From: Christensenella sp. UBA1224
GTDB lineage: Bacteria; Bacillota; Clostridia; Christensenellales; Aristaeellaceae
DNA length: 38,758 nt
Direction: 5' to 3'
NCBI GenBank assembly: GCA_002309235.1
Contig: DBXA01000185.1
Span: 6,418 to 45,175 of the forward strand
How positions within the stretch are numbered: the first letter of the stretch is position 1; each line of letters starts with the position of its first letter. The notes below the pieces were generated by a model, which had not been told where the DNA came from, did not search any database, and saw nothing but the letters and a program-made list of their open reading frames with translations. The translations under genes were made by a program, and so were the position numbers. Shown here in pieces: positions 653-29,750 of this stretch.

Positions 653-1312
653 TTATCTGACTACCGAAGAATGGCTGTAGATGTAGAATTCCTCCTGGCT
701 GGGCATCCATTTCTTTTCTTTGGGCGGGAAGGAAGCGTCGAACGCCTCGACCGCCTGTGTATCCTCGCAGCAATCGGCGGCTGTGCTTGGGATATACATC
801 CATTTCCTGCCGTCAAGGGCGCCTGGTACCAGCTCGCATACAAGGAGAGCTGTCGGGTAGTTGCCTTCCACCGCAAAGCTGATGTTTTTCTTTTTGCAGC
901 TGACAAATCCGCTGCCCACGTAGTTTGCCGGGTTCCCGAAATTGATATTGACGTCGTATCCCATGGCGCGGGCGGCTTCGAAGGAATACCCGATCAGGAG
1001 CTTTCCGACCTTTTGCCTCTGGCATTCGCGCGCGACGCAGATCGGTCCGAAGGAGAGGACCTCCTTGCGGTACCCATCATGATCCTCAAGCCATGCTCTG
1101 GTGTACATGATGTTTCCGATGATCCTGCCGTCCAGCTCCGCCACAAAGGCGAGCCCGGGAATAAAGTCCGGATGCCTGCGCATCCGATGGACGAAGTAAT
1201 GCTCATCCGCGCCTGGCTTATAGACGTTCCAGAACGCCTCGCGTGTCAGCTCTTCCACCGCCCTGTAGTCCTTTTCGGTCTCAAGCCGTATCGATATGCC
1301 GTTCATCTTCAT
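653..1312 (-). CDS. GNAT family N-acetyltransferase
   Basis: 219 aa ORF. IRLETEKDYRAVEELTREAFW...ELDGRIIGNIMYT...RECQRQKVGKLLIGYSFEAARAMGY matches the acetyl-CoA-binding Q/RxxGxG/A core of GNAT (YhbS-like) proteins. AGGAGG lies 5 nt upstream. Its ATG overlaps the stop of the upstream AraC gene as ATGA. Confidence 0.8.
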   Translation of the reverse strand: MKMNGISIRLETEKDYRAVEELTREAFWNVYKPGADEHYFVHRMRRHPDFIPGLAFVAELDGRIIGNIMYTRAWLEDHDGYRKEVLSFGPICVARECQRQKVGKLLIGYSFEAARAMGYDVNINFGNPANYVGSGFVSCKKKNISFAVEGNYPTALLVCELVPGALDGRKWMYIPSTAADCCEDTQAVEAFDASFPPKEKKWMPSQEEFYIYSHSSVVR

Positions 1313-4523: not shown

Positions 4524-4536
4524 AGGAGGCGCAGAA

Positions 4537-5481: not shown

Positions 5482-5546
5482 TACCTGTTTTACTATGAAT
5501 TTACCGGCAAGATCCGGTAAAAAATATATGATTTGGAGGGAATCCT

Positions 5547-8306: not shown

Positions 8307-8341
8307 TCTTTCTGAACGATCTGGTATAGGGAGTGCGAAGG

Positions 8342-9436: not shown

Positions 9437-9457
9437 CAGGGGAAGGGGGACAGGAAT

Positions 9458-10552
9458 GTGAAACCTTTTGAAAAACTGCATCGCGGTATGGGCGTAGGCG
9501 GATGGATGACAAACTATAAGCGCGTGCGCTTTCTTCCGGAAGAAAAAGCGTTCAACCTGTCGATCGGGGATAAAGAACATTTTGATCGTTACCTGACCCG
9601 CTGGGACATGCAGAATATCCGTTCCATGGGCATGGACCATATCCGTATCCCTTTTGACCAGGTAGTTGTGGAGGAATATAATAAGCCGTTTGCCTATCGG
9701 GAAGACATGCTGAAACTCCTGGACCGCGCCATTTGCTGGGCTGTCGATGAAGGTTTTGAGGTCATACTCAACCTGTGCAAAACCATCGGCTGCTATTGCG
9801 ATTTCGCGGAAAGGTCTGATCTCCTGGAAGATGATCTCCTCAAGGATCGCGTTGTAGCCATGTGGTCCATGCTGGAAGATCGCTACCATGATCAGGACAT
9901 CATTTTTGAGCTGCTTAACGAAGTGACTACGCAGGATGCAGCGGCCTGGAACATCCTTGCGGAACGCTGCGTAAAAACGATCCGGGAAAAGAATCCTGCC
10001 CGCCGTATCATCATAGGTTCCGCTTACTGGAACAGCCCGGACCGCCTTGCTGATCTGCAGTTGTACGATGACGACTGTATCGCCTACACGTTTCATTACT
10101 ACGGGCCGCATGCCTTCACACACCAGCGCACGACAATCGATGCAGTGCAATACGCCTATAACCGTGAGATCCCCTATCCGGGAGACAATTCGTATTACAA
10201 GGACTATGCCCGCTTCGCAGGAAGCGATCCCGCTGAATTTGATGCTTATCCCATTGTCGGCCGTTCGTATATTGAGCATGGACTGCGAGGCGCGGCACAG
10301 TTCCGTAAAGATCATCCGGGCAAGGTCCTGTGGTTCGGTGAATTCGGCACCATCCGCCATGCGAACATCGTCTGGCGTGAGAACTGGATGCGCGATGTGA
10401 TCCGCTTTGCCATCGAAAACGATATACCATACAGCGTGTGGAACTACCTTTCGACGCCTTATGACTGCAATCGCTTCTCACTGGTCACGGATGACGAAAG
10501 GCGCATCGTGAGTCCGGAGATGCTGCGCATCATACAGGGCAATACAGATTGA
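9458..10552 (+). CDS. Glycoside hydrolase family 5, CelC-like, cytoplasmic (paralogue 3; conserved His-His replaced by Cys-Lys)
   Basis: GTG start after GGGGGACAGGA, 364 aa. About 40 substitutions against paralogue 1 by my hand count. Keeps HIRIPF, FELLNEV, FHYYGP, FGEFG and VWNY, but reads LNLCKTIG (TGC AAA at 9776-9781) where the others have LNLHHAIG or NLHRALG. Confidence 0.85.
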   Translation: MKPFEKLHRGMGVGGWMTNYKRVRFLPEEKAFNLSIGDKEHFDRYLTRWDMQNIRSMGMDHIRIPFDQVVVEEYNKPFAYREDMLKLLDRAICWAVDEGFEVILNLCKTIGCYCDFAERSDLLEDDLLKDRVVAMWSMLEDRYHDQDIIFELLNEVTTQDAAAWNILAERCVKTIREKNPARRIIIGSAYWNSPDRLADLQLYDDDCIAYTFHYYGPHAFTHQRTTIDAVQYAYNREIPYPGDNSYYKDYARFAGSDPAEFDAYPIVGRSYIEHGLRGAAQFRKDHPGKVLWFGEFGTIRHANIVWRENWMRDVIRFAIENDIPYSVWNYLSTPYDCNRFSLVTDDERRIVSPEMLRIIQGNTD

Positions 10553-10593
10553 TATTGAGCTGCGTGAACGAAAAATGAAACGGAGGGGATGGC

Positions 10594-11691
10594 ATGAGCC
10601 CGTTTGAGAAAATACACAGAGGCATGGGTATTGCCGGGTGGATGACAAATTACAAGCGCATGCGTTTTGTGAAAGAGGAAGGGACGTTTGATCTTACTGT
10701 CGGTGACAGGGAACATATCGAACGCTACCTGACCCGCTGGGATATCCAGAACATCCGCTCCATGGGCATGGATCACATCCGTGTGCCGTTTGACCATGTT
10801 GTGCTTGAGGAATACGATAAGCCGTTCCGTTACCGTGAGGACATGTTTGCGCTGCTTGACCGCATGATCGGCTGGTGTCTGGACGAAGGATTAGAGGTAG
10901 TCCTCAATATGCATCATGCGATCGGCTGTTACTGTGATTTCAATGTGGGCGTGAAGCTGCTTGACAATGACCTGATGATGGAGCGGTTCCTCGCGATCTG
11001 GGATAAGATCGAAGACAGGTATCATGATCTGGATATCATATTCGAGCCTCTCAATGAGATCACGTCGCAGGAGGCTGAGCCCTGGAACGATCTTATGGCA
11101 AGGTATGTACAGATGATCCGGGCAAAGAACCCGACGCGCCGCATCATCATAGGTTCCCCGGGCATAAACCGCGTTTACCGGCTGAAGGATCTAAAGCTTT
11201 ATGAGGATGATGCCATAGGCTATACCTATCATTTCTATTTCCCGTATGCGTTCACGCACCAAAGGACAACGATCAACTCTGTAGAGTATGCCTACAACAG
11301 GGAAGTATCCTATCCCGGTCCTGTCGAAGTCTATAAGGATTACGCGGAGTATTCCAAAGGCGGTGATGGATCATCTTTTGAAGGGTTTGATACCGTCGGC
11401 AGGGAATACGTGGAACGCATTCTGCAGAGTGCAGCGGATTTCCGCGCAGCGCATCCGGAAAAGTTTCTCTGGATGGGTGAATTCGGTACTATCCGTCATG
11501 CGCCGCTCAGATGCCGGGAAAACTGGATGCGGGATGTGATCCGTTTTGCTATTGAGCACGGTATCGCATACAGCGTATGGAATTATCTTTCTACACCCTA
11601 TGACTGCAATAAGTTCTCTCTGGTGGATGACGATGATCGCCGTATCGTGAGCAGGGAGATGCTGAGGATCATACAGGGTCATGTGGACTGA
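10594..11691 (+). CDS. Glycoside hydrolase family 5, CelC-like, cytoplasmic (paralogue 4)
   Basis: 365 aa, GGAGGGG RBS. Motifs: HIRVPF, LNMHHAIG, EPLNEI, YHFYFP, MGEFG, VWNY. Confidence 0.9.
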   Translation: MSPFEKIHRGMGIAGWMTNYKRMRFVKEEGTFDLTVGDREHIERYLTRWDIQNIRSMGMDHIRVPFDHVVLEEYDKPFRYREDMFALLDRMIGWCLDEGLEVVLNMHHAIGCYCDFNVGVKLLDNDLMMERFLAIWDKIEDRYHDLDIIFEPLNEITSQEAEPWNDLMARYVQMIRAKNPTRRIIIGSPGINRVYRLKDLKLYEDDAIGYTYHFYFPYAFTHQRTTINSVEYAYNREVSYPGPVEVYKDYAEYSKGGDGSSFEGFDTVGREYVERILQSAADFRAAHPEKFLWMGEFGTIRHAPLRCRENWMRDVIRFAIEHGIAYSVWNYLSTPYDCNKFSLVDDDDRRIVSREMLRIIQGHVD

Positions 11692-11715
11692 GACGGAAAA
11701 GAGGGGGACAGGATC

Positions 11716-12810
11716 GTGAAGCCGTTTGAAAATATGCATCGGGGTATGGGGATAGGCGGCTGGCTGACAAACTTCAAACGCGTCGGGTTCATCCAGAAAG
11801 AAAAGGCGCTTGATCTGACGGTCGGAGACAAAGAACATTTTGAAAAGTATATCACACGCTGGGACATTCAGAACATCCGCTCTATGGGCATGGATCATAT
11901 CCGCATCCCATTTGACCAGGTCGTGATCGAGGAAGTTGGAAAACCAGGTGCTTATCGTGAGGAAACGCTCCGGCATCTTGACAGGGGTATCGAATGGAGC
12001 CTGGCTGAAGGTCTGGACGTGGTGATCAACCTGCACCGGGCGCTTGGCTGTTACAGTGAATTCGGTGATGGAGCGATGCTCCTGAATGACAGATCGATAC
12101 AGGATCGCCTTATCCGTATGTGGGAGATGCTGGAGGATCGCTATCATGGCCTGGATATTGCTTTTGAGCTTCTCAATGAGGTGTATTCAGATGAACCTGA
12201 GGCATGGAACAAACTCGCTGAACGGATCATAAAGGCACTGCGTGTGAAAAATCCAAAGCGCCGTGTCATCATAGGTCCTGTCTGCTGGAACAGTCCGGAC
12301 CGCCTTGCTCAGCTGCGCCTGTTCGATGATGTTTATGTGGGATATACTTTCCATTTCTATGAACCGCATACTTTCACGCATCAACGGACGACCATCAATC
12401 AGCAGCAGTATGCCTACAACCGTGAGATCCCGTATCCGGGAGACAGTTCATACTATAAGGATTTCGCTGTTTTTTGCGGAGGTGATCCGGAGGTATACAA
12501 AAAGTGGCCTGTTGTCGGACGGGAATTTGTGGAATACTCGATGCGCGGCGCGGCTGCGTTCAAGGCAGCTCATCCGGATAAATTCCTTTGGCTTGGTGAA
12601 TTCGGCAGCATACGACATGCGCGGCTTGCCTGGCGGGAGGCATGGATGCGGGATGTGATACGCTTTGCGATAGAGCATGATATCGCCTACAGTGCTTGGA
12701 ATTACCTTTCAACACCGTATGACTGCAATAAGTTTTCCTTGGTCACGGATGATGAAAGGCGTATTGTGAGCCGGGAAATGCTGCGGATCATACAGGGCAT
12801 AGCGGACTGA
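11716..12810 (+). CDS. Glycoside hydrolase family 5, CelC-like, cytoplasmic (paralogue 5)
   Basis: GTG start after GGGGGACAGGA, 364 aa. Motifs: HIRIPF, INLHRALG, FELLNEV, FHFYEP, LGEFG, AWNY. Confidence 0.9.
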   Translation: MKPFENMHRGMGIGGWLTNFKRVGFIQKEKALDLTVGDKEHFEKYITRWDIQNIRSMGMDHIRIPFDQVVIEEVGKPGAYREETLRHLDRGIEWSLAEGLDVVINLHRALGCYSEFGDGAMLLNDRSIQDRLIRMWEMLEDRYHGLDIAFELLNEVYSDEPEAWNKLAERIIKALRVKNPKRRVIIGPVCWNSPDRLAQLRLFDDVYVGYTFHFYEPHTFTHQRTTINQQQYAYNREIPYPGDSSYYKDFAVFCGGDPEVYKKWPVVGREFVEYSMRGAAAFKAAHPDKFLWLGEFGSIRHARLAWREAWMRDVIRFAIEHDIAYSAWNYLSTPYDCNKFSLVTDDERRIVSREMLRIIQGIAD

Positions 12811-12831
12811 CAGGTGAATGGAGGCGTGAAT

Positions 12832-13926
12832 GTGAAACCTTTTGAAAAGCTGCACCGGGGCATGGGTGTGGGTGGTTGGATGACGAACTACAAGCGCGTG
12901 CGGTTTCTGCCGCAGGATATGGCATACAACATCACTGTAGGTGACCGCGAGCATTTCGAGCGCTTTCTGACCGAGTGGGACATCCGGAATATACGCTCCA
13001 TGGGCATGGATCATATCCGCATTCCATTCGACCAGGTCGTGATCGAGGAATATGAGAAGCCGTTTCAATACCGTGAGGATATGCTCCTGCTGCTTGACAG
13101 AATGATCGGTTGGGCTCTGGATGCAGGATTTGAGGTCATTCTGAACATGCATCACGCAATAGGCTGTTATTGCGATTTCGCGGAAGCAGCTACTCTTACG
13201 GAGGATGAGCAGCTGAAACAGCGTTTCCTTCGGGCATGGGAGATGCTGGAAGATCGCTACCACGATCTGGATATCATCTTTGAGCCGCTCAATGAAGTGA
13301 CGACACCGGATGCAGAGGCCTGGAACATGCTGGCGGAGCGCTGCGTAAAAGCGATACGGGCGAAGAACCCGACACGCCGTATCATCATAGGCTCCACACA
13401 GATGAACCGTGTGGACCGCCTGCCGGAATTGAAACTGTATGACGATGAATATATCGCATATACCTTCCATTTTTATGGCCCGATGGTATTCACTCATCAG
13501 AGGAAAACGACCGGTGCTATGCTGTACGCTTACAACCGGGAAGTACCGTATCCCGGAGATAATTCGTACTATAAAGATTATGCTGTTTTTTCCGGGGCGG
13601 ATCCAGCAGAATTTGATCCTTATCCGATCGTCGGACGGGAATATGTGGAGCATTTGCTGCGATACGCGGTGGAATTCAAACAGGCGCATCCGGAGAAGGT
13701 CCTGTGGTTTGGAGAATTCGGTACGATTCGTCATGCCAATATCATCTGGCGCGAAAATTGGATGAGGGATGTGATTCGCTTCTCCATACAGCATGATATT
13801 CCTTACAGTGTGTGGAATTACCTTTCTACGCCTTACGACTGTAATAAGTTTTCGCTTGTTACGGATGATGAACGCCGCATCGTCAGCCCTGAGATGCTCA
13901 GGATCATACAGGGTGATGTGGATTGA
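12832..13926 (+). CDS. Glycoside hydrolase family 5, CelC-like, cytoplasmic (paralogue 6)
   Basis: The ORF track starts at 12814. I prefer GTG 12832 (VKPFEKLHRG), 7 nt after GGAGG, which gives 364 aa. Motifs: HIRIPF, LNMHHAIG, EPLNEV, FHFYGP, FGEFG, VWNY. Confidence 0.9.
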   Translation: MKPFEKLHRGMGVGGWMTNYKRVRFLPQDMAYNITVGDREHFERFLTEWDIRNIRSMGMDHIRIPFDQVVIEEYEKPFQYREDMLLLLDRMIGWALDAGFEVILNMHHAIGCYCDFAEAATLTEDEQLKQRFLRAWEMLEDRYHDLDIIFEPLNEVTTPDAEAWNMLAERCVKAIRAKNPTRRIIIGSTQMNRVDRLPELKLYDDEYIAYTFHFYGPMVFTHQRKTTGAMLYAYNREVPYPGDNSYYKDYAVFSGADPAEFDPYPIVGREYVEHLLRYAVEFKQAHPEKVLWFGEFGTIRHANIIWRENWMRDVIRFSIQHDIPYSVWNYLSTPYDCNKFSLVTDDERRIVSPEMLRIIQGDVD

Positions 13927-13946
13927 GATATAAGGAGATGGATAAC

Positions 13947-14954
13947 ATGGACAAACGCAGCTTTCCCATTGTAGGAATGATACTTGGCGACCATGCAGGG
14001 ATCGGGCCGGAGATCGCGGCTATGACACTTTCACAGCGCAGCGATATGAACTTCGCGCCTGTCCTGGCGGGCAGTCTGAAGCTTTTCCGGCGTGCTATGG
14101 CCCTGGTACCCGGCAGCGCGGAGAAGCTTGATATCGTGGATATCACACGAGATCCGTCTGTTGAAAAACAGCCAGGCAAGGTGTATTTCTATGATATACC
14201 GACTCGCGGAGATATTCCCTTCAGCCAGATCAATGCGGCCAGCGGACACCTGATATTTGACAGTATGCAGGCGATCATCCAAATGGAAAAAAAGGGACTG
14301 ATCGATGGCTTCGTCATGGGACCTATCACGAAACAAGCGCTTCATGCAGCGGGGCTCAACTATTCTTCAGAGTTTGAGATTTACAAGGAAGCGTACAATA
14401 CGCCGGTATGCCGTGCAGTTATCAAGGCAGGTGATATCTTCCGCTGCACTGTTGTAGGACATGTACGGTTTACTGAGATCGTTTCACACCTGACGCCGGA
14501 TGGCATTGTCGATACCGCGCATGCACTGCTCGGTGTTATAAGACGTTTCCATAAAGAGGGGAATATCCGTATAGCTGTAGCGGCGCTGAATCCGCATGCA
14601 GGGGAGGATGGACTGTTTGGAGATGAAGAGTCCACCATCATCCAGCCTGCGATCGATCGCTTGTTGGCGGAGGGAGTGGATGTCATTGGACCGAGCCCTG
14701 CGGATACCGTATATCGCCGGGCACAGACGGGAAAGGTGAATGGTATCGTTTACCTGTATCATGACCAGGGCAATATTGCCATGAAAGCCGCTTCGTTCGG
14801 CGATGGCGTCCTCATTTATACGGGTGTTCCGGCGCGTATCGTATCTGTGGGACATGGCGGGGCATTCGGTTCCGCAGGCAAGGGTACAGCCAGTCCGGCC
14901 AATCTCACGGCCAGCCTTGATACGCTGTTGGAAATGATCAGGGAGGAGATCTGA
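13947..14954 (+). CDS. PdxA-family NAD-dependent hydroxyacid(-phosphate) dehydrogenase (PdxA2-like), copy 1
   Basis: The ORF track starts at TTG 13923. ATG 13947 lies 9 nt after AAGGAG. GDHAGIGPEI, LNPHAGE and [11 protein letters not shown] match the conserved PdxA-family blocks (GxxxGIGPE, NPHAGE, YHDQG). Confidence 0.8.
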   Translation: MDKRSFPIVGMILGDHAGIGPEIAAMTLSQRSDMNFAPVLAGSLKLFRRAMALVPGSAEKLDIVDITRDPSVEKQPGKVYFYDIPTRGDIPFSQINAASGHLIFDSMQAIIQMEKKGLIDGFVMGPITKQALHAAGLNYSSEFEIYKEAYNTPVCRAVIKAGDIFRCTVVGHVRFTEIVSHLTPDGIVDTAHALLGVIRRFHKEGNIRIAVAALNPHAGEDGLFGDEESTIIQPAIDRLLAEGVDVIGPSPADTVYRRAQTGKVNGIVYLYHDQGNIAMKAASFGDGVLIYTGVPARIVSVGHGGAFGSAGKGTASPANLTASLDTLLEMIREEI

Positions 14955-14956
14955 GT

Positions 14957-15847
14957 ATGTATAAGCTTTCCGTAAAGCATGATCCTTATCTGAACATCCA
15001 TGTGGATTCCTATATCCTTAGGACCGATACGCACTGTGTATTCATTGACAGCGGCTTATATGGTCAGCACGAGCTTGTAGCTGAGGCTATGCAGGGCCGC
15101 GAAACGACGCTTCTGTGCACGCATGGTCACTGGGATCATATCGGCATGCACAAGACCATACAGGATATGGGGGGCCGTGTCCGGGCGAATATAGGTGACA
15201 AACCTTATTTTGAGGATCATGAATGGCACTGGAAAGAACTGTTCGGACAGTTTATGAATGACTGTACCATACCGCCTGCCAGGCGGGAGACCTATGTCGC
15301 GCGCGTCGGAAGCCCAATGGTGCCGGAATACGGGCTTGAAGATGGAGATATCCTTGACATAGGTGAAATGCGATTTCAGGTCATTGCCATACCCGGTCAC
15401 TCAAGGGGAAGCCTTGCTTTTCTCGAAATACATTCCGGAGCCCTGTTCACCGGGGATGGCTTGATCGGCAACGGTTTCTTTACCGGAACACCGCAGTATA
15501 TGAATGTGCCGGACTACTTGGCTTCAATGGAGAAACTTGCTCGTGTTTCATGCGAGACGGTTTATTCTGATCACGATCCCGTTATGCCCGGAAGCGGTCT
15601 TGCGGAGAAGGCACTTGCCGGGCGCGACTGCTGCCTGCGCATTGACAGAGTTGTGCGTGATCATGTGAAGCATCATGAAAAGGATGAAGACCTGTCACTC
15701 AATGAGATGATAGAAGCGGTCCATGCGGAAGAAGGCAGGGGTGTAGGAGCGGGCATGTGCGTGACGGTACTCGCTCACCTTGAAAATATCGAGGATCCGC
15801 CAAAATGTGTGGTCAAATGCCTGAACAGGTATATTCACGGGATTTGA
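14957..15847 (+). CDS. MBL-fold metallo-hydrolase
   Basis: 296 aa. THGHWDH (the HxHxDH zinc motif), then IPGHSRGS and a later DH, in the order typical of the metallo-beta-lactamase fold. Confidence 0.8.
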   Translation: MYKLSVKHDPYLNIHVDSYILRTDTHCVFIDSGLYGQHELVAEAMQGRETTLLCTHGHWDHIGMHKTIQDMGGRVRANIGDKPYFEDHEWHWKELFGQFMNDCTIPPARRETYVARVGSPMVPEYGLEDGDILDIGEMRFQVIAIPGHSRGSLAFLEIHSGALFTGDGLIGNGFFTGTPQYMNVPDYLASMEKLARVSCETVYSDHDPVMPGSGLAEKALAGRDCCLRIDRVVRDHVKHHEKDEDLSLNEMIEAVHAEEGRGVGAGMCVTVLAHLENIEDPPKCVVKCLNRYIHGI

Positions 15848-15861
15848 CGGAGGCGTTTGAT

Positions 15862-16626
15862 ATGTTTGATTTTACGGATAAAGTTGTTGTCGTGACAGGT
15901 GCTTCCGGTATCGGGATCGGACGTGAGATCGCCGGGCGCTTTTATCAGGCCGGTGCACACATTGCGATCTGCTCTCGTTCACAGGAGCGTATAGATGCGG
16001 CTGCGAGGGAAATAGCTGGGGAAAAAGCAGCAGATATCCTTGCAATGCAGGCAGATATGTCGTCCGTTGAGGAAATACGTGCCTTCATAGACACTGCGGC
16101 AGAAAGGTTTGGCAGGATCGATATCCTTATCAATAATGCGGGTGTGCAGTTTCCAAAACCATCGCTTGAAGTGACGGAGGAGGACTGGCAGCGTACGGAG
16201 GATACGAATCTGCGCGGGTATTTCTTCGCGGCACAGCGAGCGGCTATGTATATGATGCGATCCGGCGGAGGCGCTATTGTCAACATAGGCTCGGTCAATG
16301 CAGTAACAGTTGTACCCGGACAGGCTGTTTACGCGGCAACAAAGGCCGGTATTTCACAGATGACAAAGAGCCTTGCGCGGGAATGGGGCCGCAGCGGCAT
16401 ACGTGTGAACTGCGTAGGACCGGGTTCGATCCCCACACTGATAAATGCAGAGATATACAAGGATCCTGCGGTCGACCGCGCTATGTGCGAAAAGATACCC
16501 ATGGGCAGGAGGGGAACGACGCGCGAGATCGCGGATGCGACTCTTTACCTGGCAAGTGATTACGCGAGCTACATTACAGGACAGACATTGTTTGTGGATG
16601 GCGGGCTTACGCTGGTCCATGGATAA
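15862..16626 (+). CDS. SDR family oxidoreductase, copy 1
   Basis: Trimmed from 15805 to ATG 15862 (MFDFTDKVVVVTGASGIGIG), 5 nt after GGAGG. TGxxxGIG cofactor motif, NNAG, and YAATK (YxxxK). Confidence 0.85.
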   Translation: MFDFTDKVVVVTGASGIGIGREIAGRFYQAGAHIAICSRSQERIDAAAREIAGEKAADILAMQADMSSVEEIRAFIDTAAERFGRIDILINNAGVQFPKPSLEVTEEDWQRTEDTNLRGYFFAAQRAAMYMMRSGGGAIVNIGSVNAVTVVPGQAVYAATKAGISQMTKSLAREWGRSGIRVNCVGPGSIPTLINAEIYKDPAVDRAMCEKIPMGRRGTTREIADATLYLASDYASYITGQTLFVDGGLTLVHG

Positions 16627-16643
16627 ATAGAAGGAGGGTTTTT

Positions 16644-17522
16644 ATGAAGATCGGTTTTATAGGACTTGGCATTATGGGAAAACCAATGGCATTGAATCTG
16701 ATCAAAGGCGGTCACGAGCTTTGTGTTTATGATGTTGTCAAGGAGCGAGTAGAGGAAGTTGCCTCTGCCGGTGCGAAAGCCGCATGTTCAATCGCAGAAG
16801 CTGTAAAGGATGCGGAGTTTGTCGTCACGATGCTCCCGAACTCCCCACACGTAAAGGAAGTCGTTTGCGGGGAAGGCGGTGTCCTGTCAGCGGCTAAACC
16901 GGGGACGATCCTGATCGACATGAGCTCTATCGCTCCGGCGGCTTCACAGGAAGTTGCAGCGAAATGTGCTGAAAAAGGCGTAAAGATGCTGGAAGCGCCT
17001 GTCAGCGGAGGCGAGCCGAAGGCGATCGATGGGACGGTTTCATTCATGTGCGGCGGTGAGGAAGAGGTGTTTGAAAAGTGCAGGCCGATCCTTGCCCTGA
17101 TGGGGAAGGATATCGTTCTGTGCGGGCCGAGCGGAGCAGGAAATACCGTAAAACTGGCAAACCAGATCATCGTTGCAGTCAATATCGCAGCTGTCGCAGA
17201 AGCTTTCATGCTGGCGCGCCAGGCGGGTGTCGAGCCACAGACTGTGTTTGAAGCGATACGCGGCGGCCTTGCGGGAAGCACTGTTCTGAACGCAAAGGGC
17301 TCTATGATGATCGCTCAAAATGTGAATCCTGGTTTTAAGATCGATCTGCACATCAAGGATCTGAACAATGTAGTAGATACTGCGCACCGAAACGGTACGC
17401 CTATTCCCATGACGAGCGTCGTGATGGACATGCTCCAGAACCTGCACCTGCGCGGTATGGGTGGCTGCGATCACAGCGCCATCGCGAAGTATTATGAGTA
17501 TCTGACGGGTGTTAAGATCTGA
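16644..17522 (+). CDS. NAD(P)-dependent beta-hydroxyacid dehydrogenase (2-hydroxy-3-oxopropionate reductase / 3-hydroxyisobutyrate DH family), copy 1
   Basis: 292 aa. MKIGFIGLGIMGKPMALNL Rossmann start, LEAPVSGGEPKA, KLANQIIVA and DLHIKDL are family hallmarks (GarR/GlxR/YgbJ-type). AAGGAGG RBS. Confidence 0.85.
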   Translation: MKIGFIGLGIMGKPMALNLIKGGHELCVYDVVKERVEEVASAGAKAACSIAEAVKDAEFVVTMLPNSPHVKEVVCGEGGVLSAAKPGTILIDMSSIAPAASQEVAAKCAEKGVKMLEAPVSGGEPKAIDGTVSFMCGGEEEVFEKCRPILALMGKDIVLCGPSGAGNTVKLANQIIVAVNIAAVAEAFMLARQAGVEPQTVFEAIRGGLAGSTVLNAKGSMMIAQNVNPGFKIDLHIKDLNNVVDTAHRNGTPIPMTSVVMDMLQNLHLRGMGGCDHSAIAKYYEYLTGVKI

Positions 17523-17579
17523 TCTTTTCTATTATTGGGATTCGTTCCATGTGCTTTTTCAAAAGAACAAATAAAAGGA

Positions 17580-17612
17580 ATAGCCTACTTCACAGCAGGC
17601 TATTCTTTTTTC
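17580..17612. terminator. Bidirectional intrinsic terminator between convergent genes
   Basis: AATAGCCT (17580-17587), 10-nt loop, AGGCTATT (17598-17605), then CTTTTTT. An A-run (AAATAAAAGG) on the left serves the minus strand. Confidence 0.7.
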
Positions 17613-17635
17613 CAAGAAAATATGGTTTGAGGTTG

Positions 17636-18928
17636 TCAGTGATTAGGAAGGACCTTCCAGATCTTCATGGATCCGGGCGACAGCCAGTTTCCCGCATAAT
17701 GCGGTTCATGCCACCATCCCGCCTTTATTCCTTCTCCGGCAGGTGTAGTTCCCATGTGATATTCTGCTTCAGGGACTTCCTCCCATTGCAATCCGCATAC
17801 ATCGATCACATTAAGCCCCTTGCGGAAATACAGATAGCACTGATTCGCTTCGGTTTGCGAATTGTTTGTGATCGAGTAATAGAGAGTGCCGTCCTGATGC
17901 CGGAATCTGGAGACGATCGCTTCATGTGCGGCTTCGACGTAGATGAGGTTTTCGTCTTCTTCTTCACAGAACAAGGGGTAGTTTGCAAATGATTTCTTTG
18001 CATGCCATACCTTTTCGAGTTTGAGCTTTGGTATGAGACTGCCATATGTCTTGTGGAAGGTGCGGTTGATGCGGGCAACCTTTTCGAATTGGCTGGAGCG
18101 TTCATAATGTTCGTCGATGGGGGCAAGCCCATAACGGCCTGTCATACGGCGATTATAGAAGAAATAGCCCATTATCCCATCTGCACCATGTGCAATGGAA
18201 GTGTACAGCTGCCAGCGAAAATCGTTTTCTGTGACTTCGCGATAGCGGAAATGCCCTGTCATGAGAACTGTGTTGAGGAAAGGTACACCTGTTCGCAGGG
18301 ACATATCACGGAATACCTCAAGGTTATGGAAGTATTCTGTAAGCCCCTCTCCATCCGGGAGCAGTTGTGTATAGCAGTCATATCCGGTAAGGCCAAGATG
18401 CGCATCGTTAACGATATCAGTCAAGACATCTTGATACTTCTTGCCGCCCTGACCGAGGCGTTCAGGTCCCCAACCGAAGCTCCAGGGGGCAAAGTTGACA
18501 AACATCTTCTTTTCTGGAATCACTTCCGAAACGATTTGAGAAACCTTAATGGTGTTTTTTACTTCGATCAATCCCCTCATGCAGCCCGGCTCATCCAATA
18601 TGAAGATGGAGTCTACAGCAGGATGGAGTCCAAAATCATTGCGAAGCTGCAATGCAGCACTTCGTACTCTGTCTTCATCAAAGCGATCTGGGAACCAGGC
18701 TTTCTTGAGCCGCAGATCGTAAAACATTACATGGATATCCCTGCGAGCGGCTTCATCAAGGAGTTCAAACATAGCTTCCCTGCTTCCGGGAAATTCGGAA
18801 TACATTGGTGACATAGCCAATGTCATTCCAGCTTCGTCCCATTCTTGTACAATCTCCCGCGGTCGTTTCCAAATCTCAGGCAGTTCAAATTCACAAAGAT
18901 TCCAGAATCCGATTGGGTACTTTTCCAT
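17636..18928 (-). CDS. Hypothetical cytoplasmic protein, possibly a TIM-barrel glycoside-hydrolase-like enzyme
   Basis: The ORF track starts at TTG 18934. ATG 18928 (MEKYPIGFWN) lies 7 nt after GGAGG. No signal peptide and no motif I can name. The alternating pattern and genomic context suggest a glycosidase-like barrel. It starts 14 nt after the AraC-2 stop, so it is probably co-transcribed. Confidence 0.6.
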   Translation of the reverse strand: MEKYPIGFWNLCEFELPEIWKRPREIVQEWDEAGMTLAMSPMYSEFPGSREAMFELLDEAARRDIHVMFYDLRLKKAWFPDRFDEDRVRSAALQLRNDFGLHPAVDSIFILDEPGCMRGLIEVKNTIKVSQIVSEVIPEKKMFVNFAPWSFGWGPERLGQGGKKYQDVLTDIVNDAHLGLTGYDCYTQLLPDGEGLTEYFHNLEVFRDMSLRTGVPFLNTVLMTGHFRYREVTENDFRWQLYTSIAHGADGIMGYFFYNRRMTGRYGLAPIDEHYERSSQFEKVARINRTFHKTYGSLIPKLKLEKVWHAKKSFANYPLFCEEEDENLIYVEAAHEAIVSRFRHQDGTLYYSITNNSQTEANQCYLYFRKGLNVIDVCGLQWEEVPEAEYHMGTTPAGEGIKAGWWHEPHYAGNWLSPGSMKIWKVLPNH

Positions 18929-18942
18929 AATCAAGCCTCCGT

Positions 18943-20811
18943 TTATTCCTCCTTGTGGGAGTTGAAATTCAGCCTGTACTGGCTGGGTGTAACATTATAG
19001 GTTCTTTTAAAAGCTTTAAGAAACGTGTTTAAAGTTATGTACCCGCATTCGGAACAGATATCGCTGATCTTTTTATCTGTGTTTCTAAGAAGCGAACACG
19101 CATGCTCCATGCGGATCTGTTGGATATATGCGGCTGGTGTTTTGCCGGTAGCATCATGACAAAGTTCGTATACTGACTTTTCGTTGAGCCTTAATGAGTC
19201 CATGATGGTCTGTATATTCAGGTTTTCGTCACTCAGACGATCTCTTATGAAAGTGACGAATTGCTTCTCACGTTCCTCTTCATTCGGATCAGGAAGGTCA
19301 TCCTGTGTCGATCTGCCAATTTGAGGATGATATTCTCTTTCGGCAGCGCGAGAGTTATGCTTTCTATTATATTCTAATTTAGCATCCTGGTATGCGGTGC
19401 TCAGAGTGGAACTTCCGCTGTGTATATCGCTGATACCATACTCTATGTCGGTATCAAGGGTATGATTGACAGAATCGACCAGAGAAGACAGTTTATCTAT
19501 AAGGGAGTCCTTTAGAGATGCAACCGGCAATATGAGGATAAAGGAATTGCCATCCAAAATATGCGGTATAGCTGTTGACAAAAGCCCCTGTGTGAAATGC
19601 TGGCTGATAAGTATATGGAGATAGTTTTCATTGTCAGAGGGAACATTGGTCAGAACACAGTAAAACACGGCATAACTGTCAGGCAGTCCGGGTATAGGTT
19701 CACTCTTTTCGGAAAAAAGACACCTGTCGATGATGGTATCGCGTTGCTGATTCTGTAGGTTTTCAAGAGTACTTTGCACCTCTTGGTACTTGCGGTCTAA
19801 GGTTTCGATCGTTTCATGGATGAAATTAACAGTATCAGGACTTTGGCTGAGCCCGAACTCCAAAAGATGGCTTGCAATCTGTTCCATTGGCAGGGCTGCA
19901 CGCCTTGCGCAATAAACTGAGATCACAACACAAATCAGGAAGGCAAAGATGATATAGATAATGACCGGCTTCAGACTGGTAAAAAGTAAACCCGAGGTAT
20001 CTACTTCAAGCTGCATGGAAAACCCGAATATCGGATCACTGATCTCAAAGAACTTGCCAGATCGGAATTCGCGATCGGCTCTATACTGGTATAGAAGTGC
20101 GCCGTTTTTGTCCAGGACACGCAGAGATGCATTCGAGTTCACGGCAAGATTGAACATTGAAAGCAGCTGTGCTTCATCTATCATCAGGTAAGCATATATA
20201 TTATCCGAAGGAATGGAAGAACCGACGGCAAAGGGAGTACTGATTATATATGCGGTATTGATCGTCTTGTTTGAAAAAACCTTTATTGAACAGCCTGGAA
20301 GTGTAAAGAAACCGGACAGTGAATCAGGTGATCTAAGGCAGTCTGGCAAGGCTTCGCTGGAAAAAACATTCATGGAGAGGTATTGTGCAAGTGAAGTATA
20401 GCATCCAAAATGACTGACAATTACATCGCTGCGAGGAAAATAGATTAAAATATCAGCGTAAAGCCGGTTGGCGGCCGATAAATTCTGGATATAGTAATAA
20501 AAGTTATTAAGTGAAAAGATCGAAGATGGATTGATAGGCGCAGGTGAAAAAATAAACCGACCGGTGGTAGTGTTATTCATAGTCATGAGCATAGTAGACA
20601 TGGTCTGGAGTTCTTTGGAAAGCTGTTCGACTCCGTGGCTTAGGGATGTCTCATACATATCATAAATACGATCTTCGGTGCCGTGATAAATAAATGAGAA
20701 CAGGATAAGTATCGCTAAAACTACCACGACGAGAACGGGCAAGGTATAGCGGATATAATATGACAGCTTTGAAAGGAAGAAGCCATTGGTTTTCTTTGAT
20801 TTAACTATCAT
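18943..20811 (-). CDS. Membrane-spanning AraC/XylS-family transcriptional regulator, copy 2
   Basis: The ORF extends to 20853. I prefer ATG 20811 (MIVKSKKTNGFF), but the start is uncertain. TM helices: LPVLVVVVLAILILFSFIY and VIIYIIFAFLICVVISVY. The C-terminus AAYIQQIRMEHACSLLRNTDKKISDICSECGYITLNTFLKAFKRTYNVTPSQYR is clearly paralogous to copy 1. Confidence 0.85.
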   Translation of the reverse strand: MIVKSKKTNGFFLSKLSYYIRYTLPVLVVVVLAILILFSFIYHGTEDRIYDMYETSLSHGVEQLSKELQTMSTMLMTMNNTTTGRFIFSPAPINPSSIFSLNNFYYYIQNLSAANRLYADILIYFPRSDVIVSHFGCYTSLAQYLSMNVFSSEALPDCLRSPDSLSGFFTLPGCSIKVFSNKTINTAYIISTPFAVGSSIPSDNIYAYLMIDEAQLLSMFNLAVNSNASLRVLDKNGALLYQYRADREFRSGKFFEISDPIFGFSMQLEVDTSGLLFTSLKPVIIYIIFAFLICVVISVYCARRAALPMEQIASHLLEFGLSQSPDTVNFIHETIETLDRKYQEVQSTLENLQNQQRDTIIDRCLFSEKSEPIPGLPDSYAVFYCVLTNVPSDNENYLHILISQHFTQGLLSTAIPHILDGNSFILILPVASLKDSLIDKLSSLVDSVNHTLDTDIEYGISDIHSGSSTLSTAYQDAKLEYNRKHNSRAAEREYHPQIGRSTQDDLPDPNEEEREKQFVTFIRDRLSDENLNIQTIMDSLRLNEKSVYELCHDATGKTPAAYIQQIRMEHACSLLRNTDKKISDICSECGYITLNTFLKAFKRTYNVTPSQYRLNFNSHKEE

Positions 20812-20922
20812 AGCAAAAATCCTGTATTTTATTCTGAAGCAGACAAAAAACACTATTAATTATAATGCATGTATACAGTACCATTTTCGGAAAACACAAT
20901 CAAGTTGAAACATGGATTTAAC

Positions 20923-20985: not shown

Positions 20986-21013
20986 TATTATGAAAGACAG
21001 GCAGGACATGCAT

Positions 21014-21973
21014 ATGAGGAAAGAGGTGAGCAGATTGACTTCAGCGAGGTTTCCCCAAAAAAGATCGGGGTGGAAAAAACTTAAAAATTACTGGAGGCTG
21101 TATGCCTTTCTGCTGATTCCGCTTGTATATGTACTCGTATTCTGTTATACACCTATGGCGGGCCTGCAGATTGCTTTTAAGAAATACTCTCCAAGGCTGG
21201 GGATTATGAGAAGCCCATGGGTTGGGTTTACTCAGTTCAGGAAATTTTTTAATTCTTATTATTTTGAAAGAACCTTGGGAAATACCCTGACGCTTTCGAT
21301 TTACAGTATAGTGGCTGGCTTTCCGATTCCCATCATACTGGCGCTCATGTTTAATTGCGTTCGCTTTTCCGCAGGCCGGAAAGCGGCGCAGAACATCATG
21401 TATATGCCGCACTTTATATCCGTTGTGGTTATGGTGGGTATTATTAATCAGGTATTTGGCGCCAGGACAGGACTCTATGGTCAGATTTACAGGTATTTTG
21501 ATCCTAGTGCGACTGTACCTGATCTTCAGCTTTCTGCTAATGCGTTCCGCCATATGTATGTTTGGTCCGGTGTTTGGCAAGGCATGGGCTGGGGCACGGT
21601 TATTTATACAGCGGCTCTTACGGGTGTGGATCCCGCTTTGCATGAGGCTGCTGTTATCGATGGCGCATCCCGTTTGCAGAGGGTGGTCCATGTGGATGTG
21701 CCAACTATCATTCCAACGATAACGATCACTTTGATACTCCGATTCGGCTCGATTATGGGGATAGGTTTTGATAAGGTATACCTTATGCAAAATGATATGA
21801 ACCTTCGTGTGAGTGAGGTCATATCGACGTACACTTATAAAGTAGGATTGACCAGTACGCTGGACTACTCCTATTCTACGGCGATTGGGATGTTCAATTC
21901 TGTTGTAGGATTGATCATGCTTGCACTTATGAATTTTATATCCCGACGAGTGAGCGAAACGAGCCTTTGGTAA
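21014..21973 (+). CDS. Carbohydrate ABC transporter permease (LplB/YteP-like), locus 2
   Basis: The longest ORF starts at 20990. ATG 21014 lies 7 nt after AGGCAGGA and downstream of the candidate promoter, so the start is uncertain. EAAVIDGASRLQRVVHVDVPTI is the EAA loop. Clear paralogue of 3549..4523. Confidence 0.8.
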   Translation: MRKEVSRLTSARFPQKRSGWKKLKNYWRLYAFLLIPLVYVLVFCYTPMAGLQIAFKKYSPRLGIMRSPWVGFTQFRKFFNSYYFERTLGNTLTLSIYSIVAGFPIPIILALMFNCVRFSAGRKAAQNIMYMPHFISVVVMVGIINQVFGARTGLYGQIYRYFDPSATVPDLQLSANAFRHMYVWSGVWQGMGWGTVIYTAALTGVDPALHEAAVIDGASRLQRVVHVDVPTIIPTITITLILRFGSIMGIGFDKVYLMQNDMNLRVSEVISTYTYKVGLTSTLDYSYSTAIGMFNSVVGLIMLALMNFISRRVSETSLW

Positions 21974-21988
21974 AGGAGGGAAGACCGT

Positions 21989-22921
21989 ATGCCGAAAAAA
22001 ATGAGAAAACAGGATAATGAAGCCATCATTCTGGCAACGGATTTCCGTCCGGCAAAAAGGGATAAGGTATTTTATGCAATCAACGGAGCCATACTTATAT
22101 TACTGACGCTGATCGTGTTGATCCCCCTTATCTATATTCTTGCCTGTTCCTTCTCCTCTCCAAGAGCTGTTGCAGGCGGCAAAGTATATCTCTGGCCGGT
22201 CGAATTCAGTGTGGAAGGCTACAGACGTGTTTTTGTCTATCCGAATATATGGGTGAGTTATGGAAATACGATCTTTTATACTATAGTCGGTACGGCTATC
22301 AATGTGGTCGTTACCATTCTATGTGCTTATCCGCTTGCAAGACGGGATCTGCCCTATAAGGGCATCATCATGTTTATCTTTACTTTTACTATGATGTTTT
22401 CAGGAGGAATGATACCAAGCTATATCCTGTTGAAAAACCTGGGAATGACGAATACCCGCTGGGCTATGCTGGTGCCGGGTGCCTTATCTGTTTACAATAT
22501 GATTGTAGCCAGAACGTTTTTGATGAATATCCCTTCTGATCTTTTGGATGCTGCCAGCATTGACGGATGCAATGATACCCAGTATTTTTTCCGCATAGCT
22601 CTTCCATTATCCGGGACGTTGATCTCGATGCTCGTCCTTTTTTATGCAGTTGGACATTGGAACAGCTATTTCAATGCTTTTTTGTACCTGTATGATAAGA
22701 AACTCATGCCTCTACAGATCGTTCTGCGTGAGGTGCTAGTTGCCAATTCCATCAATACAGAATCTATTGCAGATGAAAGCTCTTTTACCGCTATTGTCGG
22801 TATGAGTGAATTGATAAAGCATGCGCTTATCGTTGTATCAAGCGTGCCTATCCTTGTATTGTATCCCTTTCTTAGGAGATATTTTGTAAAGGGTGTTATG
22901 ATCGGCTCCCTGAAAGGCTGA
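21989..22921 (+). CDS. Carbohydrate ABC transporter permease (LplC-like), locus 2
   Basis: 310 aa, AAGGAGGG RBS, DAASIDGCNDTQYFFRIALPLS. Paralogue of 4537..5481. Confidence 0.85.
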   Translation: MPKKMRKQDNEAIILATDFRPAKRDKVFYAINGAILILLTLIVLIPLIYILACSFSSPRAVAGGKVYLWPVEFSVEGYRRVFVYPNIWVSYGNTIFYTIVGTAINVVVTILCAYPLARRDLPYKGIIMFIFTFTMMFSGGMIPSYILLKNLGMTNTRWAMLVPGALSVYNMIVARTFLMNIPSDLLDAASIDGCNDTQYFFRIALPLSGTLISMLVLFYAVGHWNSYFNAFLYLYDKKLMPLQIVLREVLVANSINTESIADESSFTAIVGMSELIKHALIVVSSVPILVLYPFLRRYFVKGVMIGSLKG

Positions 22922-22986
22922 TCCTGGAAAGTGATTTCGGCCGTAAAGGCTGGAATAAATAATAATCAATTAAGGAGGAACCTAAC

Positions 22987-24604: not shown

Positions 24605-24660
24605 TTCTCCGTTGGTTGTTTATTGTAATAGATAGGGATTGGAAAGAAGGTTCAGAGAGA

Positions 24661-29749: not shown

Positions 29750-29750
29750 A

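Follow-up and report, generated by a model that had tools for sequence, protein, structure and literature searches.

The DNA analyzed here, 38,758 nucleotides of Christensenella sp. UBA1224 (contig DBXA01000185.1, positions 6,418 to 45,175) and referred to below as the window, carries two loci of like design, each divergently regulated. Both contain a triad of genes that encode a relative of the vitamin B6 enzyme PdxA (PdxA-like), a short-chain dehydrogenase/reductase (SDR) and a member of the 3-hydroxyisobutyrate dehydrogenase family (HIBADH-like). Our main finding is that these triads do not stand alone: they are the cores of a larger conserved module that recurs in related bacteria. With moderate confidence, we further propose that the triads lie at the heart of a conserved route for a sugar or an acid sugar, oxidative and non-phosphorylative, which would end at glycerate and in which phosphate would enter late.

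Two paralogous loci

Open reading frames (ORFs) of the window were listed and scanned with Pfam and NCBIfam (36 ORFs), and paralogues were compared by pairwise BLASTP. The genes that carry the argument are listed here with their coordinates in the window.

3549-7133, plus strand: locus 1 ATP-binding cassette (ABC) uptake system, with permeases at 3549-4523 and 4561-5481 and a 528-aa solute-binding protein at 5547-7133 (PF00528, PF01547)
7212-13926, plus strand: six tandem glycoside hydrolase family 5 (GH5) paralogues, CelC-like (PF00150 in 6 of 6)
13947-14954, plus strand: PdxA-like 1, A-type, predicted to be NAD+- and metal-dependent, with a putative free acid-sugar substrate (PF04166, E 4e-66)
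14957-15847, plus strand: metallo-beta-lactamase (MBL)-fold hydrolase, candidate lactonase (PF00753)
15862-16626 (longest ORF from 15805), plus strand: SDR1, candidate sugar 1-dehydrogenase (PF13561/PF00106)
16644-17522, plus strand: HIBADH-like 1, GarR-type, predicted tartronate semialdehyde reductase (NF008592, TIGR01505)
20990-24567, plus strand: locus 2 ABC uptake system, with two permeases and a 526-aa binding protein (PF00528, PF01547)
26719-27720, plus strand: 7-bladed beta-propeller lactonase (PF10282, E 2e-68)
28856-29749, plus strand: HIBADH-like 2, GarR-like (NF008592, 362 bits against a cut-off of 397)
29742-30773, plus strand: PdxA-like 2, A-type (PF04166, E 1.5e-66)
30770-31531, plus strand: SDR2 (PF13561/PF00106)
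31545-32219, plus strand: Asp/Glu-racemase-fold protein (PF01177)
32241-33296, plus strand: archaeal-type (type II) glyceraldehyde-3-phosphate dehydrogenase (GAPDH) paralogue (NF003251, 398 bits against a cut-off of 185)
33362-34621, plus strand: archaeal-type phosphoglycerate kinase (PGK) paralogue (PF00162)
34655-35719, plus strand: enzyme of the tartrate/D-malate dehydrogenase (decarboxylating) family (TIGR02089, 504 bits against a cut-off of 470)

A sequence-only reading that preceded this analysis had noticed the triad twice in the window, in different orders, and the family scans indeed place both sets. It had also called the members paralogues, which BLASTP bears out: the two PdxA-like proteins are 47% identical (E 8e-108), the two SDRs 63% (E 7e-117) and the two HIBADH-like proteins 49% (E 4e-98). 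The start/stop overlaps that it described in the second triad are seen in the sequence, as ATGA at 28856, ATGATTGA at 29742 and TTGA at 30770. Beyond the triads, the permeases of the two loci are 60% and 64% identical, the binding proteins 43% and the AraC-type regulators 26%; since these proteins are likewise paralogous, it is the two entire loci that are paralogous, and not the triads alone. What did not stand was the treatment of the triad as the functional unit, for the module is larger, with a lactonase and a transporter and often with a glycerate kinase and a block of racemase-like, GAPDH and PGK genes. In locus 2 this block sits beside triad 2, to which the earlier reading had not connected it.

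A conserved module in related bacteria

Gene neighborhoods were drawn from genome contigs and from look-ups of encoding contigs, and the resulting table holds 18 loci, namely the two of the window and 16 related ones (cited below, where they must be told apart, by our L numbers). The module is distributed over Oscillospiraceae/Clostridia, Treponema and Rectinemataceae. The PdxA-like gene is accompanied by the SDR gene in 17 of the 18 loci, while MBL and HIBADH-like genes are each present in 13; a lactonase of the SMP30/gluconolactonase (SGL) type in L027 and the 7-bladed lactonase of window locus 2 add to the MBL count. Among loci that lack a HIBADH-like gene, L006, L008 and L009 terminate shortly past the PdxA-like gene, and L011 and L012 lack it despite 10 kb and 4.5 kb of sequence beyond that gene.

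Gene order varies. The commonest arrangement begins with an optional tartrate-dehydrogenase-like gene and rpoN, followed by a B-type PdxA-like gene (about 345 aa) with a sigma-54 activator, an A-type PdxA-like gene (about 333 aa) and the MBL gene, and continues with a transporter, either of the tripartite ATP-independent periplasmic (TRAP) DctPQM type or ABC, with or without GH5, and then the SDR, racemase-like, HIBADH-like, type II GAPDH and PGK genes. A minimal version, composed of ABC, GH5, PdxA-like, MBL, SDR and HIBADH-like genes, is found in window locus 1 and in L017/L018. The full version of L028/L029 is very common and comprises AraC, ABC, GH5, PdxA-like, MBL, SDR, racemase-like, HIBADH-like, GAPDH and PGK genes, a LarA-type racemase, a CE4 deacetylase and a MOFRL glycerate kinase; the contig collection indexes the racemase-like protein of this version in 341 blocks. 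Our literature searches turned up no account of these genes as a set.

One locus departs from this scheme in its transporter. Judged by ORF size alone, L006 carries at 11109-16510 an Opp/Dpp-type ABC look-alike (a 518-aa lipoprotein-like binding protein, two permeases and two ATPase-sized ORFs), which stands where a TRAP or a CUT1-type ABC system would be expected, and no MBL gene follows its PdxA-like gene.

The sequence-only reading had pointed to the lack of genes for a DUF1537 kinase, a class II aldolase and a hydroxypyruvate-isomerase-like protein. In the window this is confirmed, with 0 of 36 ORFs assigned to these families by Pfam, and six-frame tblastn of the window with E. coli YgbK, YgbL and YgbM and a Rhizobium DUF1537 kinase gave no match at E <= 0.01. 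The absence extends to the whole module: DUF1537, OtnC and OtnI were found in 0 of 18 loci (tblastn, two DUF1537 queries), and neither PF07005 nor PF17042 is present among the Pfam-annotated neighborhoods of related loci; the DUF1537 search was confined to these loci and did not extend to the rest of the genome. On the source contig, a class II aldolase is encoded about 1 kb past the left end of the window. It was considered as an OtnC and rejected, as it is a rhamnulose-1-phosphate aldolase, RhaD (NF002963, 299 bits against a cut-off of 170), and this left-flank region belongs to a separate unit.

PdxA-like proteins with a changed substrate site

Both PdxA-like proteins of the window are of the A-type, and both are labeled as vitamin B6 PdxA by automatic annotation. 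Their scores with the PdxA model TIGR00557 (219 and 218 bits) lie under its cut-off of 290, other NCBIfam PdxA models are missed by a wider margin, and the D-threonate-4-phosphate dehydrogenase model gives only 166 and 162 bits against a cut-off of 583. They are 25 to 27% identical to E. coli PdxA and about 35% identical to a DUF1537-linked Rhizobium PdxA. The closest solved relatives are the PdxA2 structures 2HI1 and 6E85 (E about 1e-45), and TphB (4ATY) is among the matches. PdxA-like 2 is 62 to 63% identical to the PdxA-like proteins of L008 and L010. Homologues of PdxA-like 1 at 50 to 75% identity are numerous in metagenomes, where few are named (Clostridia, Butyricicoccus and Rectinemataceae metagenome-assembled genomes (MAGs)); a plasmid search returned only matches under 37% identity.

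Residues were compared in an alignment of A-type and B-type module sequences, with the numbering of E. coli PdxA. The metal-binding residues His166, His266, Asp247 and Asp267 are kept, together with Lys274, in all aligned sequences of both types, and the likewise metal-binding His211 in all except one B-type sequence (L013). Five other positions are replaced across the alignment: His136 by Glu, Thr137 by Phe or Tyr, Asn283 by Leu, Ala or Ile, Arg292 by Ile, Val or Leu, and Asp296 by Gly. PdxA-like 1 thus carries H136E, T137F, N283L and R292I, and the same positions are replaced in PdxA-like 2. The GHTE motif occurs in none of 120 homologues. The motifs GHTE, GVN and IRTS.DHGTA are kept in the solved proteins 2HI1, 6E85 and 4JQP, and the DUF1537-linked Rhizobium PdxA keeps GHTE, GVN and IRTSVDHGTA. 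In E. coli PdxA, H136 hydrogen-bonds the substrate (PMC10471632).

A Sphingomonas plasmid cluster (L025) offers an independent point of comparison. It encodes a cytochrome b561, a gluconate symporter, an SMP30 lactonase, a YncE-family propeller, a PdxA homologue, a dehydratase of the L-rhamnonate/lyxonate type and AraD1, and its PdxA homologue carries H136E, N283T, R292I and D296A, at positions that are those replaced in the window proteins. The cluster presumably corresponds to the Cupriavidus ascorbate pathway, in which a PdxA-family member is reported by Stack et al. in 2020 to decarboxylate unphosphorylated 2-carboxy-L-lyxonate. TphB (PDB 4ATY) also acts on an unphosphorylated acid. A third case is ApnO, which we take to be a PdxA-family member. 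Substrates free of phosphate therefore have precedent in the family (TphB, ApnO and the ascorbate-pathway enzyme) and are not new in themselves.

The kept metal site, the replaced ligand positions and the like replacements in the L025 homologue together suggest that the module PdxA-like proteins most likely bind a free, unphosphorylated acid. The earlier reading had left two options for these proteins, a free substrate or some other way of installing the phosphate. The first is favored, because the putative substrate/phosphate ligand positions are replaced; the second is disfavored as far as the PdxA-like substrate is concerned, the phosphate entering most likely late, on glycerate.

Partner enzymes

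The HIBADH-like proteins had been likened to the YgbJ-type dehydrogenase of threonate pathways, an analogy that fails: their identity to E. coli GarR is 55% and 48%, against 33% and 30% for YgbJ, and the YgbJ-type L-threonate dehydrogenase model NF043037 gives 200 and 199 bits against a cut-off of 350. HIBADH-like 1 passes both NF008592 (427 bits, cut-off 397) and TIGR01505 (398 bits, cut-off 341), and HIBADH-like 2 falls just under both (362 and 337 bits). The best solved structure is by far the Salmonella tartronate semialdehyde reductase 1VPD (E 1e-101). Judged by these comparisons, the two proteins are of the GarR type and not of the YgbJ type.

Four related loci point to the fate of the product. 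Glycerate kinases of two unrelated families are encoded there, GlxK/GarK-type in L013 and L027 and MOFRL-type in L023 and L028; as non-orthologous kinases within one module, they argue for D-glycerate as the product and for the entry of phosphate at that point.

At the other end of the route, SDR1 and SDR2 score 245 and 248 bits with the NCBIfam glucose 1-dehydrogenase subfamily (cut-off 215), and the best solved structure for the two is the B. megaterium glucose 1-dehydrogenase 3AUS (E 1e-52 for SDR1). We infer that the SDR acts at C1 of a sugar. The metal motifs of the MBL protein, including HxHxDH, are conserved across orthologues. In L027, the SGL lactonase gene lies directly between the SDR and A-type PdxA-like genes and replaces the MBL gene; locus 2 of the window also lacks the MBL gene and has the 7-bladed lactonase gene three genes upstream of PdxA-like 2. 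Three unrelated hydrolase folds are thus found across module loci, of which two are known lactonase families. We take this as good evidence for the opening of a lactone after dehydrogenation, and the MBL-fold protein would accordingly be a lactonase. A gene for a mutarotase-like DUF4432 protein precedes the module in L021, which fits a substrate with a free anomeric carbon.

Two candidates for further steps in locus 2 were considered. The 7-bladed propeller was examined as the enzyme of the benzilic rearrangement in the ascorbate pathway and rejected, its similarity to the YncE-type protein of L025 being only marginal (E 4e-4). The Eda-like protein of locus 2 was considered as an aldolase that would stand in for the B-type PdxA-like protein; this was weakened by the extra domain that it carries and by its Schiff-base lysine, which is present in the window copy and absent from the L008 and L010 orthologues. 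The Eda-like fusion is encoded at 25711-26700 of the window, at 7430-8494 of L008 and at 6746-7774 of L010, and its extra domain of about 150 aa shows the motifs GFEMYHLGVN...FEIMK...GKNGHIGIR...FGGFAVHLLQK.

A proposed phosphate-late route to glycerate

The proposed route draws on family assignments, on the loss of putative PdxA ligands, on GarR-type identity, on gene co-occurrence and on the absence of DUF1537. It would begin with import, in the window by the ABC systems together with GH5 or GH20-like hydrolases that release the monomer, and in relatives by TRAP systems. The SDR would then oxidize the anomeric carbon to give a lactone, which the lactonase would open (MBL in locus 1, the 7-bladed propeller in locus 2). 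The PdxA-like protein would bind the free acid at its metal site, oxidize a hydroxyl group with NAD+ and cleave a C-C bond, either by beta-decarboxylation, as in tartrate dehydrogenase and PdxA, or by a retro-aldol step, as in the first half of the ApnO reaction, to yield tartronate semialdehyde or its tautomer hydroxypyruvate. The GarR-type HIBADH-like protein would reduce tartronate semialdehyde to D-glycerate, and phosphate would enter there by way of the glycerate kinase encoded in orthologous loci. Both the exact reaction of the PdxA-like protein and its substrate are conjectural. Oxidation by NAD+ with C-C cleavage is the most economical assignment, because no acid-sugar dehydratase or convincing aldolase is present that would lead from an aldonate or aldarate to tartronate semialdehyde.

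A redox-neutral example would run from a hexuronate through aldarolactone, aldarate and 2-oxo-aldarate to hydroxypyruvate plus tartronate semialdehyde, and on to two D-glycerate. The present data could not discriminate between this example and starts from a neutral sugar, a carboxypentonolactone, apiose or uronate reduction.

Several points weigh against the route. The enzyme roles are read from sequence and context, and we could not write a single chemically complete path from a named sugar to tartronate semialdehyde with exactly these enzymes. Thr137, Asn283 and Arg292 are no more than putative further substrate or phosphate ligands of E. coli PdxA. An identity of 55% to GarR is no proof that tartronate semialdehyde is the substrate, and no glycerate kinase was found encoded in the window by Pfam or tblastn. 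SDR families are poor predictors of substrate, and the SDR matches also include gluconate 5-dehydrogenase and L-xylulose reductase. Finally, carboxylates are the usual cargo of TRAP transporters, so that what enters the cell in TRAP-type loci may be an acid from the outset, in which case oxidation at C1 fits only a uronic acid.

Alternative readings

Degradation of the ascorbate products 2-carboxy-L-pentonolactones, in which the MBL protein would open the lactone and the PdxA-like protein would remove one carboxyl group like its counterpart in the Cupriavidus ascorbate pathway, is improbable in our view, although it accounts for several observations. The L025 PdxA homologue shows like replacements at the substrate site, the PdxA-like gene adjoins a lactonase gene, and the locus 2 propeller is distantly like the YncE-type protein of L025 (at the E-value of 4e-4 given above). 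In plant material, such lactones arise spontaneously, according to PMC11066805, an article that also cites Stack et al. 2020. Identity to the L025 PdxA homologue, however, is only 34%, the module lacks an L-lyxonate dehydratase, a cytochrome b561 and an amidohydrolase, and the GarR-type protein with its glycerate kinase, the GH5 genes and the SDR are left unexplained.

A reductive uronate route is likewise unlikely. The GarR-like protein would here reduce a uronate to an L-aldonate, the PdxA-like protein would be an aldonate 3-dehydrogenase/decarboxylase that forms a pentulose, and the SDR would be a pentulose reductase. This agrees with the transport of acids by TRAP systems, with L-xylulose reductase among the SDR matches and with the oxidative decarboxylation of beta-hydroxyacids that is canonical in the PdxA/isocitrate-dehydrogenase superfamily. 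The closest solved TRAP binding protein is 4PC9/4PCD, putatively hexonate complexes. The route fails to explain two types of glycerate kinase in four loci and the adjacency of SDR and lactonase genes in L027, and it would call for a pentulose kinase or epimerase, which is encoded in no locus.

We see only a slim chance for an oxidative D-apiose route, in which the SDR would be an apiose 1-dehydrogenase, the MBL protein an apionolactonase and the PdxA-like protein an ApnO-type oxidoisomerase, with a different, phosphate-free downstream part. The first three enzyme types do come in the order of the published oxidative apiose pathway, and apiosides are plant glycosides, so that a gut or rumen organism with GH5 genes and an ABC importer could plausibly live on them. 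ApnO, as described in PMC12994016, oxidizes an unphosphorylated acid. The DUF1537 kinase OiaK and the RuBisCO-like protein are absent, GarR with glycerate kinase is foreign to the published apiose routes, and the TRAP versions of the module are ill-suited to a neutral sugar.

Very improbable is a known threonate/erythronate pathway whose DUF1537 kinase, OtnC and OtnI would be encoded elsewhere in the genome. That PdxA2 structures are the closest solved relatives of the PdxA-like proteins speaks for it; against it stand the absence of all three genes from the 18 loci, to which the search was confined, the replaced putative ligand residues and missing GHTE motif, the low score with the PdxA2 model, the GarR-type HIBADH-like proteins and the identity of the sole nearby class II aldolase as RhaD. 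The earlier claim that the module differs from the published DUF1537-dependent chemistry is therefore upheld, on the gene counts and on a PdxA2 score far under the cut-off. That the proteins are ordinary vitamin B6 PdxA enzymes, as the automatic annotation has it, can be dismissed almost entirely: they fall under every PdxA equivalog cut-off, their substrate-site residues are replaced, two copies lie within sugar-uptake operons, and pdxJ is found in no locus.

The racemase-like, GAPDH and PGK block

Window locus 2, L007, L010, L016, L022, L023, L027 and L028 each carry all three genes of the block, and window locus 1, L013, L017 and L021 carry none of them; the L008 locus breaks off within its GAPDH gene, and L005, which lacks the racemase-like gene, closes with a GAPDH fragment. 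The block is more conserved than the PdxA-like proteins, with identities of 74 to 81% for the racemase-like protein and GAPDH and 69 to 70% for PGK.

GAPDH and PGK are both of the archaeal type, and the best solved structure for the latter is P. horikoshii 2CUN. The position of PGK Arg65 is Ser in 119 of 120 clade members (HQGSD), with Asp next to it, while His62, Arg122, Arg170, Asp23 and Asn25 are kept. Arg65, Arg122 and Arg170 of PGK bind the 3-phosphate of 3-phosphoglycerate, within a basic patch that includes His62 (PMC7729029). The GAPDH catalytic Cys is kept (SCNTTGL) in the eight module orthologues. Archaeal PSHH reads PSHQ in seven of the eight and PTHQ in L028, and AVHQES reads NIPQES in five, HIPQES in two (L016 and L022) and NIPQEA in one (L027). 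As an observation in its own right, these near-invariant changes in PGK and GAPDH fall at sites that bind the substrate phosphate in the canonical enzymes; in PGK, about 13 aa are in addition inserted after DNVRF.

The racemase-fold protein carries the motifs LNQCSS (120 of 120) and LAQGSM (117 of 120), and thereby a Cys78/Ser189 pair; the catalytic pair of amino-acid racemases consists of two cysteines. Its AlphaFold2 model (pLDDT 90.5) has glutamate, allantoin, aspartate and hydantoin racemases as top Foldseek matches (TM about 0.7, 12 to 18% identity), and no sequence match was found for it in PDB or NCBIfam. It is 71 to 100% conserved across the two phyla named among its matches (Bacillota and Spirochaetota).

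A further slot, after PGK or elsewhere in the locus, is filled by three types of enzyme. It holds a tartrate/D-malate dehydrogenase in the window, L016, L022 and L023 (the L016 orthologue scores 492 bits with TIGR02089, cut-off 470), a LarAH6 malate racemase in L007 and L028 (555 and 574 bits, cut-off 500) and a SerA-like D-2-hydroxyacid dehydrogenase in L027. Activity of LarAH6 on malate has been shown (PMC7583248), and carnitine degradation runs from malic semialdehyde through D-malate to pyruvate (PMC11353897). Because all three types would fit a D-2-hydroxy-dicarboxylate such as D-malate, which is a carboxylate isostere of 3-phosphoglycerate, the block may oxidize malic or tartaric semialdehyde with a gain of ATP.

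The block with its tartrate dehydrogenase is a linked sub-module that would either convert 3-phosphoglycerate to glyceraldehyde 3-phosphate or oxidize a carboxylate analogue of the latter. The plainer version is that 3-phosphoglycerate made from glycerate may be turned into glyceraldehyde 3-phosphate. More tentatively, and as something we consider rather doubtful, the block could, instead of serving ordinary gluconeogenesis, be a shadow lower glycolysis that acts on carboxylate analogues of triose phosphates, in which malic or tartaric semialdehyde would become an acyl phosphate and then D-malate or tartrate plus ATP, the enzyme of the next slot feeding central metabolism; joined to a phosphate-free cleavage by the PdxA-like protein, this would amount to a new energy-conserving route of acid-sugar fermentation in gut anaerobes. 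A stepwise shortening of hexarate by repeated rounds of PdxA-like and GAPDH/PGK enzymes would employ all of the enzymes; it was also considered and rejected, since about 5 NADH per substrate is unattractive for a fermenter and the scheme is unworkable in four-enzyme loci.

Other features of the window

The remaining features of the two loci are as follows.

1309-3213, minus strand: locus 1 AraC-type regulator, 634 aa (PF12833/PF00165; 26% identical to the locus 2 regulator)
17578-17605, no strand assigned: terminator-like hairpin with a 12-bp stem, between the locus 1 operon and the convergent minus-strand gene at 17636-18934
18943-20853, minus strand: locus 2 AraC-type regulator, 636 aa (PF12833/PF00165)
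24616-25698, plus strand: GH20-like protein, a weak match (PF00728, E 2e-8), without NCBIfam match
25711-26700, plus strand: Eda (2-keto-3-deoxy-6-phosphogluconate aldolase)-like domain, with a C-terminal domain of about 150 aa without family (PF01081 over residues 23-175 only)
27711-28859, plus strand: M20 amidohydrolase of the N-acyl-amino-acid deacylase type (PF01546/PF07687; TIGR01891, 307 bits against a cut-off of 154)
35727-36482, plus strand: alpha/beta-hydrolase esterase of the S9/PHB-depolymerase type (PF00326)

The six GH5 paralogues are 59 to 89% identical to one another, all keep the acid/base LNE and nucleophile GEFG motifs, and their best solved structure is C. thermocellum CelC (1CEC, E 4e-59). 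With both catalytic Glu residues and CelC as nearest relative, they suggest that what ABC-type loci import is probably an oligosaccharide or glycoside with beta linkage. Only one GH5 copy is present in each orthologous locus, so the six-fold amplification is local; it suggests a beta-linked glycoside as the form of the substrate, and one that is important to this organism. The N-termini of the paralogues show no apparent signal peptide, and the C-terminal WNYLSTPYDCN..RIVS.EMLRIIQG is strongly conserved. The GH20-like and M20 amidohydrolase genes are seen in locus 2 only, and neither in locus 1 nor in the other loci examined; they hint at an N-acylated variant of the substrate.

Both AraC-type regulators (about 635 aa) have their helix-turn-helix confined to the last 80 residues, after a long N-terminal part without family. 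The 432-aa protein encoded at 17636-18934 on the minus strand, with the hairpin terminator just downstream, is the product of the true gene between the loci: it has no Pfam or NCBIfam match, counts 1074 relatives at E <= 1e-3 among 50%-identity representatives, and gives only a low-confidence AlphaFold2 model without alignment (pLDDT 41.5). The plus-strand ORFs at 17549-17992 and 18002-18811 are shadows of this gene. On the left flank (11902-16085 of L002; positions 1-1312 of the window and beyond), downstream of the locus 1 regulator, lie an acetyltransferase gene (653-1312, minus strand), an ADP-ribosylglycohydrolase gene across the window start, the rhamnulose-1-phosphate aldolase gene and a partial ORF of 312 codons without Pfam or NCBIfam match; the plus-strand ORFs at 60-566 and 545-1597 are shadows of these genes. 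On the right, a branched-chain amino-acid aminotransferase (36572-37609, minus strand; NF009897, 433 bits against a cut-off of 307) is probably a housekeeping enzyme, and the plus-strand ORF at 36533-37237 is its shadow. An identical stretch is present on a 41.5-kb contig of run SRR5324840, with fragments in SRR094437 and SRR094926, and the nearest named relatives are uncultured Oscillospiraceae and Clostridia MAGs.

Significance and comparison with known systems

Anaerobes of the gut, the rumen and the insect gut commonly carry the module, and the automatic labels of its genes (vitamin B6 synthesis, FabG, GAPDH, PGK) would mislead metabolic reconstructions. Once worked out, it would add a substrate and a reaction to those known for the PdxA family, show how a sugar or acid sugar from plants or hosts is turned into glycerate without an early kinase, and perhaps provide the first GAPDH and PGK paralogues that act outside glycolysis.

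The PdxA2/DUF1537 pathways that degrade D-threonate and D-erythronate (Zhang et al. 2016 PNAS, cited in PMC9997740) share with the module the PF04166 family, the NAD+/metal-dependent oxidation of a hydroxy acid and acid-sugar catabolism as a theme, but differ in that the 18 loci lack DUF1537, the putative ligands are replaced, identity is about 32 to 36% and the partner enzymes are others. With the lower glucarate/galactarate pathway of E. coli, the module has in common its GarR-type HIBADH-like proteins and, in orthologous loci, a GarK homologue (40% identity) or a MOFRL kinase. Its PdxA-like proteins, however, stand where the dehydratase GarD/GudD and the aldolase GarL would be, and none of the aldarate dehydratase GarD/GudD and GarL families was found in the window or in the Pfam-annotated neighborhoods.

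Non-phosphorylative oxidative sugar pathways (the rhamnose Lra pathway, and the archaeal Entner-Doudoroff pathway with its MOFRL kinase; PMC2063504) likewise start with an SDR and a lactonase, end with glycerate and a kinase and take up phosphate late, whereas the module lacks an acid-sugar dehydratase, has in its Eda-like protein a doubtful aldolase and places a PdxA-family enzyme at the central step. The Cupriavidus-type ascorbate cluster (L025) has a PdxA member with the same positions replaced, beside lactonase-type genes, but at 34% identity, and its cytochrome b561, YncE, lyxonate dehydratase and AraD1 are absent from the module. The lower carnitine pathway (PMC11353897) employs a decarboxylating D-malate/tartrate dehydrogenase after the oxidation of an aldehyde and is a possible analogue of the GAPDH/PGK and tartrate dehydrogenase block; its aldehyde dehydrogenase is non-phosphorylating, however, whereas the block's candidates are GAPDH and PGK paralogues, and the link is only a suggested one. 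Taken against these systems, the module is probably an uncharacterized and widespread phosphate-late acid-sugar pathway built around PdxA-like enzymes, and neither the DUF1537 route nor the Gar pathway.

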